Notes: a model not told the origin generated them from the sequence alone. DNA of 64,000 bases from an uncultured Collinsella sp. (GCA_900546825.1 UREE01000001.1:1733-65732); one strand, 5' to 3'; shown: positions 3,935 to 33,753, numbered from the stretch's first letter. Translations and numbers: made by a program.

Positions 3935-5254
3935 CTACAGGCGCTCGCGAACCGCCTCGACGACGTTGGCCAGATCGACCAGCACCTCGTCATGGCTCTC
4001 CATGTCGCGTACCTTGACCTTGCCGGCGGCAAGCTCGTCGCCGCCCAGGACCAGGATGAGCTTGGCGCCTACCTTATCGGCCTGCTTAAACTGGGCCTTG
4101 AGCGAACGGCCCTGGTAGTCGGCCTCGGTCACGATACCTGCGGCGCGAAGCTCCTGCGTAATGGTAAAGACGTTCTGGCGCAGCTCCTTGCCGGCGTTGG
4201 CGACATAGACGCACGGGGCCTCATCGGCACCCAAGTCGTTACCAAAGGCCTGAAGGGCCAGCAGCGCACGCTCAAAACCGACAGCGAAGCCGACGCCCGC
4301 CGTGGGCTTGCCACCCTCGAGCTCGACCAGGCCATCGTAGCGGCCGCCGCCGCCGATGGAGCCGACGCCGGCGCCAGGGGCCTCGACCTCAAAGACAGTA
4401 CGGGTGTAGTAGTCCAGGCCGCGCACCAAGGTGGGATCCTCGACATACTCGATACCGGCGGCATCCAGATAGCGCTTGACCTGCTCGTAGTGCTCGCGGC
4501 ACTCGTCGCACAGGTTGTCACCCATCAGCGGGGCCTCGGCCATGATCTCGCGGCAATGGTCGTTCTTGCAGTCGAAGGCACGCAGCGGGTTGAGCTCGGC
4601 GCGCTCACGGCACTCATCGCACATCTCGTCGGCGTGATCGAGGATGAACTGCTTAACCTGCTCGCGGTAAGCCGGACGGCACTGGGCGTCACCCATCGAG
4701 TTGATAAGCAGACGAAGCTTGGAAAGATCGAAGCCCAAGCGCTTGTAGAACTCCATGAGCATGATGATGCACTCGGCGTCTGCCGCCGGATCGGGAGCGC
4801 CGAGCCACTCTATGCCCACCTGGTGGAACTGGCGCAGGCGGCCCTTCTGGGGACGCTCGCCACGGAACATGGCCTCGGCGTAGTACGCCTTAAACGGCGT
4901 GGAGCCCTGGGGCACCAGATTGTTCTCGACGACGGCGCGCACCACGCCGGCCGTGCCCTCGGGGCGAAGTGCCAGGCGCTGCTTGGGCTTGAGTTTGGTG
5001 TCGGTGCCCTCGGTAAAGACGCGCTCCAGGTTGGCACCGCTGAACACGCGGAACATTTCCTTGCGCACGACGTCGGTCGACTGGCCGATACCGTGGACAA
5101 ACACGTCCACCTGCTCGATCGCGGGCGTCTCGATGGGTTTAAAACCAAACGGCTCGAACACGCCGGCCGCAATCTGCTGCATCTTTTGCCAGGCGCGCAT
5201 CTCGGCGCCGATAAGGTCGCGGGTTCCCTCCGCCTTCTGTGCCTGCATGGGCAA
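3935..5254 (-). CDS. hisS: histidine--tRNA ligase
   Basis: 439 aa; class II aaRS motifs LRPEGTAGVVRA and GGGRYDGLVE typical of HisRS. Confidence 0.93.
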   Translation of the reverse strand: MPMQAQKAEGTRDLIGAEMRAWQKMQQIAAGVFEPFGFKPIETPAIEQVDVFVHGIGQSTDVVRKEMFRVFSGANLERVFTEGTDTKLKPKQRLALRPEGTAGVVRAVVENNLVPQGSTPFKAYYAEAMFRGERPQKGRLRQFHQVGIEWLGAPDPAADAECIIMLMEFYKRLGFDLSKLRLLINSMGDAQCRPAYREQVKQFILDHADEMCDECRERAELNPLRAFDCKNDHCREIMAEAPLMGDNLCDECREHYEQVKRYLDAAGIEYVEDPTLVRGLDYYTRTVFEVEAPGAGVGSIGGGGRYDGLVELEGGKPTAGVGFAVGFERALLALQAFGNDLGADEAPCVYVANAGKELRQNVFTITQELRAAGIVTEADYQGRSLKAQFKQADKVGAKLILVLGGDELAAGKVKVRDMESHDEVLVDLANVVEAVRERL

Positions 5255-5380
5255 ACACCTTTCTTTTGTATCGCGTCATAGGTAATGGTCATTATACGGC
5301 ACAAACGCAAACAGCGACGGCGCGTCTGACCGAACGAGGGTATGGGGACTCGTTCGGCCAGGCGCGCCGCCGCTGTTTGT

Positions 5381-5442
5381 GATCCCTTTTCCTCCGTCCC
5401 CTTCGGATCACGTGATCCCTTGGGGACGGAGGAAAAGGGATC
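5381..5442. repeat. 62-bp palindromic element (GATCCCTTTTCCTCCGTCCCC...GGGGACGGAGGAAAAGGGATC around a central CACGTG) in the hisS upstream region
   Basis: The two 30-bp arms are reverse complements with 3 mismatches. One arm motif, GATCCCTTGGGGACGGAGGA, recurs at 13721-13740. Confidence 0.6.
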
Positions 5443-5552
5443 ATTTCGTAGGCCCGTAGCCGCCTTGGAAACCGAATGATGGTACGAGCATCCATTCGGC
5501 TTCCAAGGCGGCCACGGGCAGAACGGGGCGAACAGAAAAGAACGACGGACGT

Positions 5553-5961
5553 CTACTCCCCCGCCACGCTTGCGCGCAGCTTGGCGGCGATAGGCTCCGA
5601 GGCCAGCAGGAATACGAGCATGATCACAGAACACACCAGGCACACGATCCAGGTGCTCGCAAAGGAGCCCGTGGCGTCGAACAGCACACCCGAGACGATG
5701 GCGCCCACGGTGCCACCGACCATCTCGAGCGAGGTAATGGTGCCCGTGACCTTGCCCAGGTCGGCCATGCCAAACTGCTTAGACGCAGCGATCGTGGGCA
5801 TTGGAGATGTTGTACTGCGCAAGGGAAATGCCCAGGTCGCTGACGATGAGCGGCTGGAACAGGCTCATGCAGTTGACGAAAATTGTGTAGCACGTGGCCA
5901 TGATCACAAAGCCGGAGGCCACCACGAGCCAGCCGGGGAAGAATTTACGTTGCTGAGACAT
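5553..5961 (-). pseudogene. MFS transporter remnant with large internal deletion/frameshift
   Basis: The 60-aa N-terminal fragment MSQQRKFFPGWLVVASGFVIMATCYTIFVNCMSLFQPLIVSDLGIS (5779..5961) and an 89-aa C-terminal fragment ending ...VSGVLFDATGSFASTWIVCLVCSVIMLVFLLASEPIAAKL (5553..5822) lie in different frames and join near 5790. Only about 140 of the roughly 400 expected residues remain. Confidence 0.6.
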
Positions 5962-5964
5962 GGA

Positions 5965-7263
5965 TTACTCCTTGTGGTCCGCAATGTATCCGAGAGCGAC
6001 GGCGGCATAAGCCGCGGCGCCGAGGGGAAGCTCGGCATCGTTAAAGCGCGCTTTGGGATGATGCTGGGCAAAATGCTCGTCCGTGTCGGTTACGGCCGCG
6101 CCCACCGTAAAGTACGCACTTGGGATCTCGCTCGAGATAAGCGCGAAGTCCTCACTCGCCATGGCATGGAAAAGCGGCAAGAAAGCCGCCTTGGGCAGCA
6201 CTGCGCCCACGTAGCCAAGCGACGCCTGAGTCATATCGCTGTCGAGTACAAGCGGCGGAACATCCGAAAGCGTCTCGACGGTCGCCGGCGTACGATAGGT
6301 CGTGGCAACGCCTTTGACGACCTCCGCGATGCGGGTCTTGAGGTGCTCCATGAGCTCGACGTCGAAGCCACGCAGCGTTCCCTCGAGCACACAAGTGTCG
6401 GGGATGACATTTGCGGCCTGACCGCCGGCGAACTTGCCAACGGTAAGCGCGACCTCCTTGGCCGCCGGCACCTCGCGAGAGATAAGCTCCTGAAGCGCCA
6501 GATGCACATGGACGCCGGCCGTGATGGGGTCGATGCAGATCTCGGGGCTCGAGCCATGGCCGCCCTTGCCCTGAAGCGTGATGCGAAAACCGTACACGCC
6601 CGAGAGCGCCGGGCTGCCGTAGAGCACCAGGCCAAGCGGCGACTGGCTATTGACATGCATGGCAAAGGCGGCCTGGGGACGCGGGTTCTGCAGCAGACCG
6701 TCGGCGATGGCGGCGCGGGCACCCTCAAAGGTTTCCTCGCCCGGCTGGAACAGCAACTTAACCGTGGCGTTGGCGTCGACAAGCGCAGACTCGCGGGCCT
6801 TGAGCAGGCGCGCCGCTCCAAGCAACGCCGTCGCGTGCATATCGTGTCCACATGCGTGCATGCAGCCGTTCGTAGAGGCGAAAGGCTCGCCTGACTCTTC
6901 GGCAACGGGCAGGGCATCCATGTCGCCACGGAGCATGATGACCGTACCGGCCTGTTCGTCCGTGCAGACGCCATTGCCCTGGGCCGCGGCGGCGCCGGCG
7001 CCGACAAGGCCCACGACACAGGAACCATCGACGAGCGTGGCAAATGGGATTTCCATCTCGGTCAGGCGCGCTTGAATATACGCAGAGGTCTGTGGGAGGC
7101 TATTACCCAGCTCGGGCATCTGGTGTAAATCGTGTCGCCACGCAGCGAGCTCGTCTGCAAAAGCCTGAGCTTCTGCAACGAGACCGTCACCGATAGCGGC
7201 CTGCGCCGCTGCGGTGGCCTTGGGCGCTGATTGCGGTTGAAGATCGGACTGAGCTGGTGCCAT
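5965..7263 (-). CDS. M20 family metallopeptidase / N-acyl-amino-acid amidohydrolase
   Basis: MHACGHDMHATALLGAARLL metal-binding motif of the M20D aminoacylase/hippuricase family. Start most likely ATG at 7261-7263 (MAPAQSD, RBS GGAGGG) rather than the 7317 ORF-track start. Confidence 0.8.
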   Translation of the reverse strand: MAPAQSDLQPQSAPKATAAAQAAIGDGLVAEAQAFADELAAWRHDLHQMPELGNSLPQTSAYIQARLTEMEIPFATLVDGSCVVGLVGAGAAAAQGNGVCTDEQAGTVIMLRGDMDALPVAEESGEPFASTNGCMHACGHDMHATALLGAARLLKARESALVDANATVKLLFQPGEETFEGARAAIADGLLQNPRPQAAFAMHVNSQSPLGLVLYGSPALSGVYGFRITLQGKGGHGSSPEICIDPITAGVHVHLALQELISREVPAAKEVALTVGKFAGGQAANVIPDTCVLEGTLRGFDVELMEHLKTRIAEVVKGVATTYRTPATVETLSDVPPLVLDSDMTQASLGYVGAVLPKAAFLPLFHAMASEDFALISSEIPSAYFTVGAAVTDTDEHFAQHHPKARFNDAELPLGAAAYAAVALGYIADHKE

Positions 7264-7379: not shown

Positions 7380-8363
7380 TTACAATTGCGAGCGCGGCTT
7401 TCGACGCAAAAAATCGAAGTGAGTCTCGCTCAAGATAATCGACAGGAAGATAAGCACAAAGCCGGCGAGCAGGCGCGAGGTGAGCGCCTCCCCCATCAGC
7501 AGCACCGAAAACAACACGCCCGAAGGCGATTCCATCGAAAGGAGCAGCGAGCCCGTCGAAGCCGGGACATGCGCCAGGCCGACGTTTTGGATGAGCAGAG
7601 CCACGCATGTGCAGCCCACCGAGAGAAACGCCATCACACAGATAAAATTCGGCGTCCACACGGACAGAGGCGCCTGGGTCTCGAATAGCAGCGACGAGAC
7701 CAGGCTTAGGATGCCATTGCCCACAAACATCCAAAACGTGATGACGTTGATGTCCATTTTGCGACCGTACTTGGCGGTCACCGCCATCTGGATGGCGAAG
7801 AAGACCGCGCCGCCCAGCGTAATGGCATCGCCGATATTGAACTCGACGCTATCGAGTGCCACCAGGCCAATGCCCGCCAGGCACAGCAGTGCCGCACCCA
7901 GGTTATAGCGAGTGAGCTTTTCGCCGCTCAGGACATAGCTGGCAAACGGCACAAGGATACAGTACGTGCCCGTCAAAAATGCACTCTTGCCTGCCGTGGT
8001 CTGTGCCAGGCCAATCGTCTGCAGTCCGTATGCTCCCCACATGAGCGCACCCATGCCCAGCCCGACGATAAGGTTGCGAGCATTAAAGTGTGCGATGATG
8101 CGTTTACGGAAGATGGCGAACATAACCAGCGAAGCCGGGAGAAAGCGAACGTAGACCAGCTCGAACACCGGAACGGTATCGAGCGCATCTTTCATGGTGG
8201 TAAAGGAATAGCCCCAGATGACCGCCACCGAAAGCAGCAAGACCTTCCAGAAGAACGGAGAACGCGCGCCGGCGCCGCGGGAGGTGCCGCCGGCACCCAG
8301 GTCTTCGCGCGCTACAGGGCTATCGGGCATGTTTTCGATTTCATCAACGGCATTCTGGGCCAT
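7380..8363 (-). CDS. EamA/DMT-family drug/metabolite transporter
   Basis: 327 aa, about 10 TM segments, N-terminal WGYSFTTMK and duplicated EamA-like halves. Confidence 0.8.
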   Translation of the reverse strand: MAQNAVDEIENMPDSPVAREDLGAGGTSRGAGARSPFFWKVLLLSVAVIWGYSFTTMKDALDTVPVFELVYVRFLPASLVMFAIFRKRIIAHFNARNLIVGLGMGALMWGAYGLQTIGLAQTTAGKSAFLTGTYCILVPFASYVLSGEKLTRYNLGAALLCLAGIGLVALDSVEFNIGDAITLGGAVFFAIQMAVTAKYGRKMDINVITFWMFVGNGILSLVSSLLFETQAPLSVWTPNFICVMAFLSVGCTCVALLIQNVGLAHVPASTGSLLLSMESPSGVLFSVLLMGEALTSRLLAGFVLIFLSIILSETHFDFLRRKPRSQL

Positions 8364-24041: not shown

Positions 24042-24169
24042 GCGTGCTCCTCTCGCGCTCCATTATGCCCGAGGCGACGCACGCCACACACAACAAGCGT
24101 GGGTGATTAAGTCGGCCTTAAGCACCCTTGTGCCCGTTCGGGCGCGGATGTGGGCCACGCACGCACGCG

Positions 24170-25579
24170 ATGATCGCCGACGCCGGCAAACGATATACTC
24201 TAGTTCCAGAAGAGACCATCCCGTCGAAAGCGAAATCCGTGAAGTCCCTCACCTCTTTTGCAAAGCGCTCAGCCCAGCTTGCCGCCGGCTTTGTCTGCGC
24301 TATCGCCCTTGCCGCTGGCGCGCCCACCGTCGCCGGCGCCCAAGTGCTCACGACCGACAATGTTTGCGGCAAAACCGCCGATGCGCGCGGCATCACGGCC
24401 GAAAACCTGCCCGATATCGATGCGACCAATGCCCTCGTCATGGGCAAAGACGGCACCGTCTACTATGCCCGCGGCGCCGATGAGCAGGTCAAGATTGCCT
24501 CGATCACCAAGGTCATGACCGCAATCCTAACCGTCGAGAATTGCAAGATGGACGAGAAGGTCACGGTGAGCAACGCCGCAGCCACCGTGGGCAATTCAAC
24601 AGCCGGCCTACTCGAAGGCGACGAGCTCACCGTGGAGCAGGCACTGCGCGGCCTGATGATTCCCTCGGGCAACGACGCCGCCATCGTGCTCGCCGAATAT
24701 GTGGGCAAGAAGATCGACCCTAAGACCAAAGACGCCGAGGCAACATTTGTGAAAGCCATGAACGAGCGCGCTAAGAAGCTCGGTTGCACCGGCACGCTTT
24801 TTGAAAACCCGCATGGTCTGGACTTTGATGAGTGGGCTGGCGATATGCACTCAACCGCACACGACGTAGCGCTGATGATGCAAGAGGCCATGAAAAACGA
24901 CACGATCCGCGAGGTCGTAGCGAGCGAGGATTCCTGGATCGAGGTCACGGGCGCCGACGGCACCGACCATTCGCATTCCATGGACACGCATAACTATTTG
25001 CTAGGCCAAGATGGCAACATCGGTGGCAAGACCGGCACCACCGATGATGCAGGCTATTGCTTTACGGGTGCCTACAACCGCGATGGCGACGAGATCTACA
25101 CCGTCGTTTTGAACTCCACCACCACCGACCAGCGCTTTACCGATACCGCAACCCTTGCCAATTGGTACTACGGTCACAAGGTGACGGTCGCAATCGCCAA
25201 CACGCAGGAAAAGACCGCCAACGGCAACCCGCTTATGGCGCGCATTGGCCAAACCGACTGGACGGATAAGACGATCGACGCCACGCTCGCCGATCCTACG
25301 GCGCAAGCGACCGTGTTTTCCCTTGCCGGCGAGGTGACCGAAAAGGTTAGCTACGACGATCTTTCGGGCACGGTGCATGTGGGCGACAAGGTGGGCAGCG
25401 TTACGCTCAAGCAGGATGGCACCAAGATCGCCGTCATGGACCTGGTTGCCGACGAGGAAGGCGCAGGGCCGAATCCCATTGAATGGCTGCTCGTGAAGCT
25501 CGATCGCTTGGGCCGTCGCATCGACAACCGCCCACTCACGGCAGAAAGCGAGACCGTCGCCAAGGCGCCCGAGGTGTAG
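24170..25579 (+). CDS. D-alanyl-D-alanine carboxypeptidase (S11, DacA/PBP5-like) with signal peptide
   Basis: SITK active-site motif (KIASITKVMTA), SGN motif (IPSGNDAAIVLAEY), C-terminal PBP5-C-like domain. Divergent from the VanRS-like TCS. The ORF-track start 24128 may be upstream of the true start. Confidence 0.85.
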   Translation: MIADAGKRYTLVPEETIPSKAKSVKSLTSFAKRSAQLAAGFVCAIALAAGAPTVAGAQVLTTDNVCGKTADARGITAENLPDIDATNALVMGKDGTVYYARGADEQVKIASITKVMTAILTVENCKMDEKVTVSNAAATVGNSTAGLLEGDELTVEQALRGLMIPSGNDAAIVLAEYVGKKIDPKTKDAEATFVKAMNERAKKLGCTGTLFENPHGLDFDEWAGDMHSTAHDVALMMQEAMKNDTIREVVASEDSWIEVTGADGTDHSHSMDTHNYLLGQDGNIGGKTGTTDDAGYCFTGAYNRDGDEIYTVVLNSTTTDQRFTDTATLANWYYGHKVTVAIANTQEKTANGNPLMARIGQTDWTDKTIDATLADPTAQATVFSLAGEVTEKVSYDDLSGTVHVGDKVGSVTLKQDGTKIAVMDLVADEEGAGPNPIEWLLVKLDRLGRRIDNRPLTAESETVAKAPEV

Positions 25580-25637: not shown

Positions 25638-25660
25638 AGGGTTCGAATCCCCAGCCGCCA
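25637..25660 (+). repeat. inverted partial copy of the tRNA-Ser 3' end (T-arm plus acceptor plus CCA)
   Basis: GAGGGTTCGAATCCCCAGCCGCCA versus the tRNA-Ser 3' end GGGGTTCGAATCCCCAGCTCTCCGCCA, which lies on the opposite strand 50 bp away. Confidence 0.5.
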
Positions 25661-25710
25661 TTCTTGATAATAAAAAGGGCCCCAAATGGGACCCTTCTTC
25701 AAATTCGTAC

Positions 25711-25801
25711 TGGCGGAGAGCTGGGGATTCGAACCCCAGATGCCCTTTTGGGGCATACTCGCTTAGCAGGCGAGCACCTTCGGCCTCTCGGTCAGCTCTC
25801 C
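25711..25801 (-). tRNA. tRNA-Ser (anticodon GCT)
   Basis: 91 nt; GGAGAGC acceptor stem, anticodon loop CTGCTAA, long variable arm, GGTTCGAATCC T-arm, encoded CCA. Confidence 0.9.
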
Positions 25802-25893: not shown

Positions 25894-28335
25894 CTACCCC
25901 AGCGAGCGGTTGAGGGAGCCGAGCTCGTCGTTGCCCATGGTGCGCCACATTTGGAAGATACAACCGCGCGCCAGGAAAAAGAAACCGTTGTCGACCAGTT
26001 GCACAGCGGCATCTGCCAGCTGATTCGTCACGGCGGACACTGGCGGCAGCTCTAGTCCAGCCTTGTGGATGGTCTCGACCGCTTCCTCGAACGTCGGAGG
26101 CCCGCTGACGCCCATCTCGTTCATAAGGCCCTGCATTTCTTCCAGCGCGCTGCTGCCCGACTCCTCGCCGCGCGGCACCAGACGGTAACAAGCCAGCGCC
26201 AGGTCGAGCTGATCGCAATTCCAATAGGCAAACGCCAAGCGATAGAACAGGTAGCCGATTGCAGAACGATCGCTGGCAATACGTAGGCCGTGGCGCGCCA
26301 CCTCGATAATCTCGTCAAAGCGCTCCAGACGCGCAAGCACGTTGATGAGCGCAAAGTGCGACTGCATGGACGAGCGCGCCAGATCGTAAAGATGGCGCAC
26401 CTCGGGCAGTGCTCGTTCAAAGTCCTCTTGCTCGGCGTAAAAGCTGCAGATCTCGTGCTGGGCAAAGTACAGCGCATCGGGCGCACGAAGGATTCGCACA
26501 GAGCGGTCTTCTTCCAACACCGGTAGCACCATGCGCACCAGCTGGTTATCGCAAAACTGCGTTTGAACCGGACCTGTCGCCAAAAGCTCGGCGACGGCGC
26601 ACTTAGCCTCCAACTCCTCAACAAGACGGGAAAAGCCTTCAAAAGCACCTGTACGGTCGACTTTTGCCTGCTCGCGCAATTCAACAACACGGGCCACGTA
26701 TGGGTCGTCGTCCTCTTCCATGACCTCCAGCTCGTCAGCCGTATCGGCAAGCAGCAGATCGCGCAGCGCCGGCGGCAGCATGCGATGGTCATCACGCGGA
26801 CGAGCATGAACCTCCGCAGGTTCAATCGTCTCCGGAGCGGTTGACTCATATGCCTCAAGCACACGCTTGCACGGCATATCGTCCATGTCCATGCTCTCAA
26901 GATCCTTGGCGACAGGCACGCAATCGGCCAGATAGGCCGCGCGCCCAAAGAAATACGTTGCAACAACGCGCTCGCCCTGCTCACTGTCGGGAGCAGCAAT
27001 CTGCACATAGCAGCGCGTGATGCAGGTGCCCGCGGCAAAACACGCTGCCGCAAGCGTGAGTGCCACGCGCGCATCGTGCTCCGCGGCCCAGATCGCACGC
27101 GCGTCCTCGTCCAACTCGCGCCAGGCGTCATCTTGAGCGTCGTATTCACGTTGCGGCATGGCATCAACGACAGACTGCCCAAACCGAACGAGCATGATCC
27201 CTTCGGCAACGTTGGCCCGATAGGTATAGTCGAGCCGCGTGACCACGTTAAGTGCCTCGACAATACGCGCGAAGCGGGTACGCACATCCCACTCACCGCC
27301 CGGCTGGCAAGCCACCGTACCCGGTTTGCCCCACGGGTTATCGCTCGAGGCCGTATCAAGCAGTCGGGGAACATCGTTGGTCGTCTTGGCGATATGCCAC
27401 GCATCAAAGAGCGCGCAGCCCTCAAGGCTCGGCGAGGATGCCGCAGGGACCAATCCGGCCCCGATGTGCTCAAGGATGCCGGAGAGACGGTTAAGACGGC
27501 ACTCGATGGCAAGCAGCATGTCAATCTCGTCCCGGTCCAGCAGGCTGCGATCAAAATTGAGATAGAAAAGCTTTGAGCGATCGATGCGAGCCAGGCTCAT
27601 CTCGGACTTAGCGGCGATGGTGCGCAAGCGAGGCAAGTCAATTTCACTCATAAGGGCGGCGGCATAGCGCTCGATACCGCTCGGATTCTCGGCATGGTCA
27701 ACGCGGTAGAGCAGCGTCTCGATAGCGTCAGGTAGCGGTGTCGTGTTAAAGCCCAAAAACACCTCGACCGGCTCGGGCAACTTTACGAGCTTGATCTTGT
27801 CGACAACGTTTTGCATACCCTCGTCGAGTCCGTCGGCGTCCGCCGTGCTCGCAATGGTATTTTCGGAGTCAGCGAATATCACGTAGCGCAGGAACATCGA
27901 TGCCATGAACTCACCGTAAGGAAGGGAGCGGGTCGAATTCCATGTCTCGTGATCGGACTGTTCGCGCATGGGACCTTCGGGAGAGCCGACGGTTCGCGCG
28001 CACGCGCGCATCGTGCCGTTTGCTCCCCTCACCATAATCTCACCAATACCGGAGTCCGACTCGTCAAGGACCAGTTCCATGTCGGGATCGTTGGGCAGCG
28101 GAGCCTCGCTGACGGGGCGGTCCACCTTGCACACCTCACCCGAAACGCTTACGTAGCCCAAAAGCGACACATGGCTTTTGCCAACGAATTCGACGACATA
28201 ACAAGATTCATGCTGATCCTCGCCAAAGAGTTTCCAGACCACGCCATATGAGCGTCCCGCAGGCTGCTCGGGCATCGCCGGAAAGCGCTTCTTGGGATCG
28301 AGAAACCTGAGCTTGTATGTCGGACGCTCTGCCAC
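25894..28335 (-). CDS. hypothetical cytoplasmic protein, 813 aa, acidic, no recognisable catalytic motif; C-terminal third helical/TPR-like
   Basis: Single long ORF with genome-typical codon bias filling the tRNA-Ser/tRNA-Arg interval; no TM segment; no family recognised from sequence. Confidence 0.6.
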   Translation of the reverse strand: MAERPTYKLRFLDPKKRFPAMPEQPAGRSYGVVWKLFGEDQHESCYVVEFVGKSHVSLLGYVSVSGEVCKVDRPVSEAPLPNDPDMELVLDESDSGIGEIMVRGANGTMRACARTVGSPEGPMREQSDHETWNSTRSLPYGEFMASMFLRYVIFADSENTIASTADADGLDEGMQNVVDKIKLVKLPEPVEVFLGFNTTPLPDAIETLLYRVDHAENPSGIERYAAALMSEIDLPRLRTIAAKSEMSLARIDRSKLFYLNFDRSLLDRDEIDMLLAIECRLNRLSGILEHIGAGLVPAASSPSLEGCALFDAWHIAKTTNDVPRLLDTASSDNPWGKPGTVACQPGGEWDVRTRFARIVEALNVVTRLDYTYRANVAEGIMLVRFGQSVVDAMPQREYDAQDDAWRELDEDARAIWAAEHDARVALTLAAACFAAGTCITRCYVQIAAPDSEQGERVVATYFFGRAAYLADCVPVAKDLESMDMDDMPCKRVLEAYESTAPETIEPAEVHARPRDDHRMLPPALRDLLLADTADELEVMEEDDDPYVARVVELREQAKVDRTGAFEGFSRLVEELEAKCAVAELLATGPVQTQFCDNQLVRMVLPVLEEDRSVRILRAPDALYFAQHEICSFYAEQEDFERALPEVRHLYDLARSSMQSHFALINVLARLERFDEIIEVARHGLRIASDRSAIGYLFYRLAFAYWNCDQLDLALACYRLVPRGEESGSSALEEMQGLMNEMGVSGPPTFEEAVETIHKAGLELPPVSAVTNQLADAAVQLVDNGFFFLARGCIFQMWRTMGNDELGSLNRSLG

Positions 28336-28450: not shown

Positions 28451-28708
28451 AGCTGGCGCAAAAGAAAAGCCCCCGTTGCCGGGAGCTTTAATCTCAAATG
28501 GTGCGGCGTATAGGATTCCGCGCATCCGCTGCGCGGATCCGCACCGGCTTCGCCCGCCTGCCGGCGGACTCGCCCGCTCGCTAAAAACGCTCCGCGTTTT
28601 CTTGACGCTCGCGCCTCGACCGAGGTTCGAATCCATGCGGTGGCGGCATAAAAGAAAAGCCCCCGTTGCCGGAGGCTTTCAATTTCAATTGGTGCGGCGT
28701 ATAGGATT
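28451..28708. repeat. tRNA-Arg-associated structure: 59-bp direct repeat (terminator plus tRNA-Arg 3' 20 nt), 138-bp GC-rich unit, second copy of the repeat that runs into the intact tRNA
   Basis: Copy A 28451-28509 (aaaagaaaagcccccgttgccgggagctttaatctcaaatggtgcggcgtataggattc) versus copy B 28648-28708 (aaaagaaaagcccccgttgccggaggctttcaatttcaattggtgcggcgtataggattc). The intervening unit is about 80% identical to the unit at 33496-33627. Confidence 0.8.
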
Positions 28709-28765
28709 CGAACCTATGACGTTCTGATTCGTAGTCAGACCCTCTATCCAGCTGAGGTAACGCCG
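28689..28765 (-). tRNA. tRNA-Arg (anticodon ACG)
   Basis: 77 nt; GCGGCGT/ACGCCGC acceptor, anticodon loop CTACGAA, GGTTCGAATCC T-arm, CCA encoded. Confidence 0.9.
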
Positions 28766-28843
28766 CAGCGCAAGACATATAAAACCACTTTAGCTTATTG
28801 GAGTCAAGCACAATTTCAAACTTTTTTGTGGAACGCAGTCTTG

Positions 28844-29221
28844 TCATGCTGCTCCGCATATACCGCCATTCCCCGTACGATCGATTGGCTTTTCGATCAC
28901 GTCAAACTTAGCATCAAGTTCCCTCAGGAGCGATCTCACCCGCTGGGCACAATCATAATCGGCAAACGAGATGCTCAACATGCGAGCAACCTGATTAGAT
29001 GTCTGGACCCCATAGAAATGCTCTAGGGCCACAAGCCCCTCGTGCGCCACAAACGTCTCAACCACATGAGGCGACTCCTCGTAGCACCATTGCGTCAACG
29101 GCCCCTCGCTCGTCTGTCGAACCACCAGGCCACCCATGCCAGACGGCTCACACGTCACAAGCAGGTACTCCCCGCCCTCGTCGCTCTCAAACAAAACCAC
29201 CCGATCATCAAACAGCTCCAT
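28844..29221 (-). CDS. hypothetical protein (125 aa)
   Basis: ORF with typical codon usage between tRNA-Arg and serS; no family recognised. Confidence 0.5.
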   Translation of the reverse strand: MELFDDRVVLFESDEGGEYLLVTCEPSGMGGLVVRQTSEGPLTQWCYEESPHVVETFVAHEGLVALEHFYGVQTSNQVARMLSISFADYDCAQRVRSLLRELDAKFDVIEKPIDRTGNGGICGAA

Positions 29222-33400: not shown

Positions 33401-33440
33401 ACGTTGCCATTAGGATACCCGTCCAAGGAGATCGTGCATA

Positions 33441-33684
33441 ACAAAAAGCCCCCATTGCTGGGAGCTCTTTCATTTAATGGTGCGGGCGAAAGGACGTCCG
33501 CGTATCCGCTTCGCGGATCCGCACCGGCATCGGCCGCCTGCCGGCGTCCTTGCCAGCTCGCTAAAAACGCTCCGCGTTTTCTTGACGCTCGCTCCTTCGC
33601 AGGTTCAAGTCCCCGCGATGGGCACATAACAAAAAAGCTCCCATTGCTGGGAGCTCTTTCATTTAATGGTGCGGGCGAAAGGAC
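33441..33684. repeat. tRNA-Leu-associated structure: 55-bp direct repeat (terminator plus tRNA-Leu 3' 18 nt), 132-bp GC-rich unit, second repeat copy that runs into the intact tRNA
   Basis: Copy A 33441-33495 (acaaaaagcccccattgctgggagctctttcatttaatggtgcgggcgaaaggac) versus copy B 33628-33684 (aacaaaaaagctcccattgctgggagctctttcatttaatggtgcgggcgaaaggac). The unit shares GCGGATCCGCACCGGC...GCTCGCTAAAAACGCTCCGCGTTTTCTTGACGCTCGC with the 28510-28647 unit. Confidence 0.8.
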
Positions 33685-33753
33685 TTGAACCTTCATGGGG
33701 TTGCCCCCATACGGACCTGAACCGTACGCGTCTGCCAATTCCGCCACGCCCGC
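33667..33753 (-). tRNA. tRNA-Leu (anticodon CAG)
   Basis: 87 nt; anticodon loop TTCAGGT, long variable arm TGGGGGCAACCCCA, GGTTCAAGTCC T-arm, CCA encoded. Confidence 0.9.

Follow-up and report, generated by a model that had tools for sequence, protein, structure and literature searches.

The unit beside the tRNA-Leu(CAG) gene of this uncultured Collinsella genome is one of more than 300 copies of a family of ~190-bp elements that encode no protein and sit at tRNA T-loops in gut Coriobacteriia. On balance we favor the view that it is a small (~190 bp), protein-less and non-autonomous mobile element that inserted in the T-loop of the tRNA-Leu(CAG) gene between nucleotides 58 and 59. Judging from the databases and literature that we searched, the family is apparently undescribed. 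The literature search returned no described equivalent of the unit, and Rfam 15 contains no family for it at either gathering or E-value thresholds, with only tRNAs reaching threshold and the remainder being spurious terminator-like matches. Collinsella-1 (RF01700), tmRNA and tRNA-like RNAs were rejected as the identity of the unit, as none gave a credible sub-threshold Rfam match.

The locus lies in a window of 64,000 nt, the whole stretch of DNA that we analyzed, and positions are counted from its first nucleotide. A repeat finder aligned 33443–33495 with 33632–33684 (53 nt, 98% identity, spacing 189), and if one 1-nt indel (A5 vs A6) is allowed, the identity reaches left to ~33437/33626. 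The first of these repeats, copy A (33437–33495, minus strand), is a direct repeat of 33626–33684 and consists of an A-tract, a terminator hairpin, a spacer and nt 59–76 of the tRNA. Copy B takes in the final 18 nt of the tRNA-Leu(CAG) gene (33667–33684) together with the terminator; the intact gene occupies 33667–33753 on the minus strand (ARAGORN; Rfam tRNA, 50.6 bits), and the non-tRNA part of copy B forms the terminator module beside it (33628–33666, minus strand), where a terminator scan and the repeat finder place a perfect hairpin at 33636–33655 followed by a spacer. The sole substitution within the 53-nt repeat (AGCCCCCA in copy A vs AGCTCCCA in copy B) leaves one stem mismatch in the terminator hairpin of copy A, which reads AGCCCCCA-TTGC-TGGGAGCT (33447–33466, minus strand). 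The 18-nt fragment in copy A (33478–33495, minus strand), with the sequence GTCCTTTCGCCCGCACCA on that strand, is identical to 33667–33684. Between the two copies, the unit spans 33496–33627; a preliminary description had recognized a 135-bp unit flanked by a direct repeat at this locus, and the repeat and the unit are as described while the measured length is 132 nt.

Beginning next to copy A, the unit contains hairpin P1 (33499–33523), with an 11-bp stem and a GAA loop on the minus strand (GCGAAGC), hairpin P2 (33526–33554), with a GGCA loop on the minus strand, and hairpin P3 (33556–33592), recognized by pattern matches, in which an internal loop separates an outer stem from the inner stem AAAACGC-GGA-GCGTTTT and which is the most conserved core of the family. 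These are followed by a small hairpin, H1 (33593–33604; CCU-GCGA-AGG on the minus strand), which overlaps the 5′ end of a copy of the tRNA T-arm. All four hairpins are assigned to the minus strand. The T-arm copy itself, AGGTTCAAGTCC (33601–33612, plus strand), lies on the strand opposite to the tRNA and is a 12-nt exact match to nt 51–62 of its own tRNA-Leu, so that its minus-strand counterpart, which we refer to as the anti-T-arm segment, can pair with the T-arm on both sides of the nt 58/59 insertion point. A variable segment without assigned strand (33613–33627) runs from the T-arm copy to the A-tract of the terminator, and was found in 16 variants among Leu units and 46 among Arg-type (GGTTCGAATC) units. 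An explanation of this segment as a direct or inverted copy of the acceptor stem was rejected, as cognate and non-cognate alignment scores were equal; the exception in this comparison was an extended T-arm match in Ser, Gln and Leu(CAA).

The window contains two occurrences of the unit core, where shuffles predict 0. The second occurrence is at tRNA-Arg(ACG) (28460–28766), where the layout is the same as at Leu and the unit core is 91% identical over 100 nt, in agreement with the earlier claim that the two loci are alike. This sister copy (28499–28638, minus strand; covariance model 120.7 bits, E = 1.6e-28) includes a displaced tRNA 3′ fragment at 28499–28518, the unit, and the T-arm copy AGGTTCGAATCC at 28623–28634, beside the tRNA-Arg(ACG) gene at 28690–28766. 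The Arg and Leu units are nearly identical in P1 to P3 but distinct in their T-arm copies and 3′ fragments. At tRNA-Ser(GCT) (25711–25801) we observed a relic without a unit, consisting of the T-arm copy GGTTCGAATCCCCAGC and a variable segment (25641–25662, plus strand) joined directly onto the terminator of the carboxypeptidase gene upstream (24128–25579). At the same position L077, L100 and L012, from other Collinsella, have a complete unit of the Ser type and a second T-arm copy, and diverged units are found in other Collinsella at both Ser(GCT) and Phe(GAA), the latter being an empty site in the window genome. The Ser and Arg loci are ~2.9 kb apart, with similar spacing across Collinsella. 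The neighborhood in the window is a housekeeping one (SerRS, ProC, RlmH, SPFH, TatD, KsgA, MetRS), and the two ORFs flanking tRNA-Arg, 25894–28335 (minus strand, 813 aa) and 28844–29221 (minus strand, 125 aa), gave no Pfam or NCBIfam match.

Within a species-representative genome set, the unit core was found in more than 117 genomic stretches, mostly from Collinsella and with one Slackia genome, and in these loci the unit is always on the opposite strand to the tRNA gene and faces it, with the core ~110 nt away. A looser pattern (AAACGC-N3-4-GCGTTT-N18-30-GGTTCRANYCC) matched at least 120 metagenome loci and 8 viral-contig loci, the viral contigs containing host flanks only around their matches. 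In 267 of the 319 instances listed, a tRNA gene lies on the opposite strand, facing the unit, 48–62 nt beyond the T-arm copy, and among the matches listed 18 tRNA species from Collinsella, Slackia and gut metagenomes carry a unit. Orientation relative to the tRNA is constant and every copy is downstream of the tRNA gene. The family shares a four-part anatomy comprising a tRNA 3′ fragment, three to four covarying hairpins, an inverted T-arm copy, and a terminator with the intact tRNA. The preliminary description overlooked both the membership of the unit in this large family and the target-matched T-arm copy within it.

The T-arm copy, 12–18 nt long across the family, follows the tRNA at which each unit resides: its longest exact match averages 13.2 nt (range 8–17) to the cognate tRNA vs 8.4 nt to non-cognate tRNAs. 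Read by eye, the 7-nt T-loop is identical in most contexts, following seven different T-loop sequences, and the match includes position 57, which is outside the duplicated segment. At the other end of the unit, a direct copy of the tRNA 3′ end (at least 16 nt) abuts P1 in ~90% of copies, with the junction 2–5 nt into the T-loop and the tRNA fragment beginning at ~nt 59. Several Gly, Val and His copies repeat only the last 17–21 nt of the tRNA, ending at CCA. Across the family the duplicated length ranges from 16 to ~87 nt, and because of this variation no single staggered-cut rule fits.

A covariance model (139 positions, 44 pairs) was derived from six minus-strand sequences without gaps. It detected 129 copies among 100 metagenome loci; in the window it gave exactly two hits, at the Leu and Arg loci (E = 2e-37 and 2e-28). 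Helix cells were paired in 91.1% of cases compared to 75.9% in shuffles, 37 of the 44 pairs showed both-sided changes, and the covariation score was 0.33 against 0.12 when shuffled (reached in 0/500) and 0.03–0.06 with slid partners; the alignment was fitted to the model, which makes these figures lean toward structure, and the slid controls are far lower. Both-sided changes occurred in 10 of the 11 pairs of helix 8, which is P1, and in all 10 pairs of helices 6 and 7, which form P2; P3 corresponds to helices 3–5 and H1 to helix 2. RNAalifold on a plain MAFFT alignment detected P3 and H1 only, missing the rest because P1 and P2 were misaligned, a problem that the covariance model solved. According to the model, the tRNA-sense strand (minus at Leu) is predicted to fold into a five-way junction with GNA and GNNA loops. 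Its closing helix is formed by the anti-T-arm segment and nt 59–65 of the displaced tRNA fragment and encloses H1, P3, P2 and P1, and the acceptor 3′ strand and CCA are a free tail outside it. At Leu, the fragment at 33478–33495 (model positions 122–139) supplies both the 3′ strand of this helix and the tail, and copy A thereby pairs with the inverted T-arm segment of the unit in a covarying helix. A predicted DNA fold likewise pairs the T-arm with the inverted copy (z = −7.1).

Several observations bear, indirectly, on which strand carries this fold. Of 49 diverse units, 41 had the more stable fold on the minus strand (p = 4e-7), and with DNA parameters this held for 38 of 40. Its P3 triloops are GNA in 67/67 cases and its P1 triloops in 84/116, and GNNA tetraloops account for 64/70 in P2 and 78/94 in H1. 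Such loops characterize the d(GCGNAGC)/d(GCGNNAGC) mini-hairpins described for single-strand phage origins (PMC13037366), and they lean toward DNA because many of the tetraloops are GNYA and fall outside the RNA GNRA class. Counts of G-U vs A-C pairs were 84 vs 75 in MFE structures and 244 vs 110 in the model-fitted alignment, with the A-C pairs concentrated at two helix-end pairs; this leans toward the minus strand moderately and not decisively, and the alignment was fitted with the minus-strand model. The GC skew of the plus strand is negative, which makes the folding strand the lagging-strand template. A small RNA gene on the plus strand was rejected, since a promoter-like site was not found, the TTGAC motif is unconserved across the family, and the fold and loops favor the other strand.

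The two copies of the repeat were compared across relatives. The preliminary description had taken copy A for an att-like relic, pointing to its imperfect terminator stem next to the perfect stem of copy B and expecting mismatches to accumulate in copy A. The stem difference is present in the window, and the displaced status of copy A holds up, but its decay and loss of function do not: among 52 Collinsella Leu loci a stem mismatch occurs in 10 copies A and in 16 copies B, at Arg nearly all of the 75 loci have one stem mismatch in each copy, and the 18-nt tRNA fragment of copy A is unchanged in 47/52 Leu loci (substitutions in 5/52 for copy A and 0/52 for copy B). The C/T site in the stem is polymorphic in both copies across the population, and the mismatch in the window is accordingly best described, from these alignments, as a population polymorphism. 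Equal conservation of both copies in relatives had been named as evidence against a relic, and this is largely what we observed, with near-zero diversity in both; in the Collinsella Leu loci, per-site diversity is near zero in copy A, the unit, copy B and the tRNA, and the adjoining unique flank is highly diverse. Copy A is plausibly the displaced original 3′ end, showing no faster decay than copy B. We read it this way because of the empty alleles, the junction that always falls in the T-loop, and the decayed outer copies of arrays.

The empty alleles were observed at several tRNA genes. At Leu, L030 and L113 have a single copy of the repeated segment, the same as copy A, and other empty alleles occur at Phe (the window itself vs L063 and others), Ser and Arg. 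At ~13 Gly(CCC) loci with tandem arrays, the copy beside the tRNA scores 155–166 bits and the farther one or two copies 33–50 bits. All three units of the L162 array end with the same 18-nt tRNA fragment, and in its distant copies the terminator is gone and little of the anti-T-arm segment is left. This pattern fits what would be expected of repeated insertion at the live tRNA, with older copies pushed outward. Identical tandem units with a 190-nt period (L016 and others) fit repeated insertion or unequal crossing-over alike, and truncated copies always retain the tRNA-proximal end. By eye, the body of the Gly(GCC) unit is closely similar to those of the Arg and Leu units, again with different targeting parts, and a shared P1–P3 body with different targeting parts at Arg, Leu and Gly requires movement between unrelated tRNA genes.

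The low diversity and the arrays also bear on an alternative in which the unit does not move. Here it would be a functional module of the tRNA 3′ flank maintained by the host, acting as a read-through trailer RNA or as a single-strand DNA priming or restart signal located past heavily transcribed tRNA genes on the lagging-strand template, and changing in copy number by unequal crossing-over only. In its favor, the whole element, copy A included, is as invariant as the tRNA next to a highly diverse flank, and the very low diversity across Collinsella could reflect host selection rather than selfishness. Helices that covary over long evolutionary distance, an orientation fixed relative to the tRNA, an anti-T-arm segment present at most loci of relatives (58/63 for Leu(CAG) and 167/197 for Arg(ACG)) and arrays of identical units with a 190-nt period all speak for it, as do the three to four mini-hairpin-capped stems within ~140 nt, which recall the primase-dependent G4-type phage origins (PMC13037366). 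Against it stand the near-identical P1–P3 bodies with target-specific ends, which need movement between loci, and the decay of outer array copies, which are evidently not maintained. Strains with empty sites exist, the window genome itself having no element at Phe and just a relic at Ser, and a host module leaves the duplicated tRNA 3′ fragment without a role and has no promoter-like site in the sequences searched. We therefore judge a host module unlikely, while giving it appreciable weight.

A mobile element inserted in the T-loop would account for the locus as follows. The element would enter the tRNA-Leu(CAG) gene at nt 58/59 and bring its own version of tRNA nt 59–76 and a Rho-independent terminator, which become copy B and leave the tRNA intact and terminated. 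After the terminator on the minus strand would come the variable segment, the 12-nt anti-T-arm segment, and then H1, P3, P2 and P1, and the original 3′ end of the gene with its terminator would be pushed downstream as copy A. The insertion would be made by an enzyme supplied in trans. Counting against a mobile element, no recombinase, transposase or reverse transcriptase was found in or next to any copy. The anti-T-arm segment, complementary to ~8 nt 5′ and 4–9 nt 3′ of the insertion point, may help to find or align the target. The active form would be single-stranded, with the loop types and the strand bias favoring DNA of the lagging-strand template, an indirect argument for both the strand and the choice of DNA over RNA. 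Among the 245 loci examined, a larger protein-coding relative was not found, and candidates for an autonomous parent element were rejected, the instances without a tRNA being arrays, contig ends, prophage junctions and insertions of another element. The presence and absence alleles can also come from deletion between the 57–64-nt direct repeats or from spread by homologous recombination.

A bolder version of the mobile element, which we consider unlikely and put forward tentatively, is that of a guided mobile DNA. The ~190-nt protein-less module would move as a folded single strand, pairing of the anti-T-arm segment across nt 58/59 would align the spare 3′ end with the cut target, and a host or distantly encoded enzyme would recognize the mini-hairpins. 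With two parts exchanged, the anti-T-arm segment and the 18-nt fragment, one P1–P3 body would be redirected to any tRNA, and the sequences of the Arg, Leu and Gly units give the appearance of such retargeting.

Tandem arrays of tRNA-Arg(ACG) with one to five genes and a ~425-bp period are present at many loci (L002–L116, including L020, L050, L061 and L105), with at least three different upstream regions and a unit at some genes and none at others; the copy-number variation often ends contigs. Chimeric units were also seen. In L021 (1–230), copy A and P1 are of the Leu type and are joined to a T-arm copy of the Arg type with tRNA-Arg, and L224 joins a Gln-type 5′ part to a Glu-type 3′ part; either units at different tRNA loci have recombined or the chimeras arose in assembly. 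In some Collinsella genomes, copy A and the 5′ part of the Leu unit are replaced by a ~250-bp MITE with perfect terminal inverted repeats (AAATATGAGTACTGTCAC ... GTGACAGTACTCATATTT; L115 ~4870–5130, L052 ~5000–5250, L075). A further multi-copy element is inserted at the junction of the variable segment and the terminator A-tract (...AAAAG|ACGATATGAGAAAGCCATTGGGG...), in all cases at contig ends (L069 1–160, L002 ~7965–8000, L059 ~6430–6505, L075, L106, L121) and in units of four tRNA types (Arg, Phe, Leu, Val). It has a ~130-nt leader, a ribosome-binding site and an ORF starting MPHVTSIG, and we take it to be a putative IS110-type element with a leader RNA; a group II intron was rejected for lack of an Rfam match. 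Prophages were observed at the extreme 3′ end (last 6–9 nt) of unit-bearing Glu, Gln and Lys tRNAs (viral loci L238–L245, L206, L224), leaving the unit and terminator outside themselves. In Slackia sp. ZJ119 (L098 4300–5860), the unit-adjacent tRNA is cut at the anticodon loop by an inserted island, whose 397-aa ORF (4666–5859) is presumably an integrase, and the 87-nt duplicated block includes the T-arm copy as well.

Direct repeats of a tRNA 3′ end that start in the T-loop are the classic signature of tRNA-integrating islands, and sublocation classes of integration within tRNA genes were reportedly set out by Williams in 2002. The unit resembles most a tRNA-integrating island reduced to its attachment region, but without the defining integrase. 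With the islands and prophages that use tyrosine integrases and T-loop sublocations, and with cis-mobilizable elements and tycheposon remnants, it has in common the insertion at a tRNA 3′ end, the replacement 3′ end, the direct repeat starting in the T-loop (at Leu, 18 nt of tRNA within a 53–57-nt repeat that has the intact tRNA at one end), the tandem arrays, and precise empty sites in related strains (Leu, Phe and Arg). It differs in being ~190 bp long, with no arm-type repeat sites and no parent found, and the 132 nt plus repeat hold neither an integrase nor any other gene-sized ORF; unlike islands, it also contains hairpins specific to one strand and, internally, a stretch of complementarity to the target T-arm. 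It might nevertheless be the dead scar of a classical integrase-mediated island or prophage, deleted down to joined ends between the att repeats and perhaps still moved in trans by related integrases, as cis-mobilizable elements are. Beyond the island-like repeats, this is suggested by the prophages and the island that use the same tRNAs in related genomes (viral loci L238–L245 and the Slackia locus L098), and islands, tycheposons among them, are known to accumulate in tandem at a single tRNA (bioRxiv 10.1101/2020.12.28.424599). However, across more than 300 copies we found neither a linked integrase nor a continuation into a larger element, and searches of phage and plasmid collections gave no match to the unit. 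The prophages and island that we observed use other integration points, either the extreme 3′ end or the anticodon loop, with the unit remaining outside them, and independent scars at 18 tRNAs would not share covarying hairpins or a target-matched inverted T-arm. We hold a scar of this kind to be quite unlikely.

A SINE-like retroelement, copied via cDNA with the 18-nt tRNA 3′-end complement as primer-binding site or with a CCA-tailed minus-strand RNA used by a reverse transcriptase, is very improbable: retroviral primer-binding sites do have a length and position like those of the 17–21-nt fragments that in several copies run exactly from nt 59 to CCA, and every truncated copy keeps its tRNA-proximal end, but no copy is linked to a reverse transcriptase, the duplication passes CCA into the terminator in most Collinsella copies and so reflects the gene and not the mature tRNA, CCA is genome-encoded and a boundary there is not diagnostic, and truncation from one side would likewise follow if deletions of the terminator or tRNA are selected against.

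Other known systems match the unit in part. Like REP/REPIN sequences with RAYT and like IS200/IS605 and its palindrome-associated derivatives, it is short, multi-copy, protein-less and hairpin-rich, and the activity of those systems depends on one DNA strand, the lagging-strand template. In IS608, short internal guide sequences pair with the cleavage or target site, and the complementary segment of the unit is longer (12–18 nt). These elements, however, have no long direct repeats and use 4–5-nt target motifs that are not tRNA, and their left-end and right-end hairpins resemble each other whereas the hairpins of the unit do not. Integron attC sites and CTX-phi attP(+) share with the unit two inverted partial target copies, some tens of nucleotides apart, that can fold within one strand into a duplex mimicking part of the double-stranded target, and with them too repeated integration gives rise to tandem arrays; the target here is a tRNA T-arm and not attI or dif, and the folded helix is 4–11 bp in the excised configuration. 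Group I internal guide sequences and group II exon-binding sites are, like the anti-T-arm segment, inserted sequences complementary to both sides of the insertion point. The unit, in contrast to introns, duplicates the downstream exon instead of interrupting the gene, its loop types favor DNA, and an Rfam search at E up to 10 returned no intron family and thus no group I or group II ribozyme core. G4-type single-strand initiation signals, like the unit, span ~140 nt with three stem-loops that end in GCGNAGC/GCGNNAGC mini-hairpins on one strand (PMC13037366); the unit differs from them in being chromosomal and tied to a tRNA 3′ end, in having a target-matched T-arm copy and a duplicated tRNA fragment, and in that we saw no conserved primase start motif. 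DDE-derived MITEs have terminal inverted repeats and a fixed duplication, in contrast to unit ends that lack such repeats and a duplication of variable length, and of the features of LTR-type retroelements we found the 18-nt tRNA 3′-end complement but no reverse transcriptase or LTR. The unit was not seen to have the full set of defining features of tRNA islands, of IS200/IS605/REP, of attC/CTX-phi or of introns.

If the unit is indeed a mobile element, many tRNA genes of gut Coriobacteriia carry a compact, structured, target-matched insertion element. This would account for the tRNA-flank repeats that break assemblies in Collinsella, for the copy-number variation of tRNA-Arg arrays, and for partial tRNA fragments. 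It would also provide a natural example in which base pairing guides the choice of site and the element encodes no protein, and the 12–18-nt anti-T-arm segment, being changeable, offers a simple experimental handle. Even as a host module, a conserved five-way junction tied to 18 tRNA species would represent new tRNA-gene biology.
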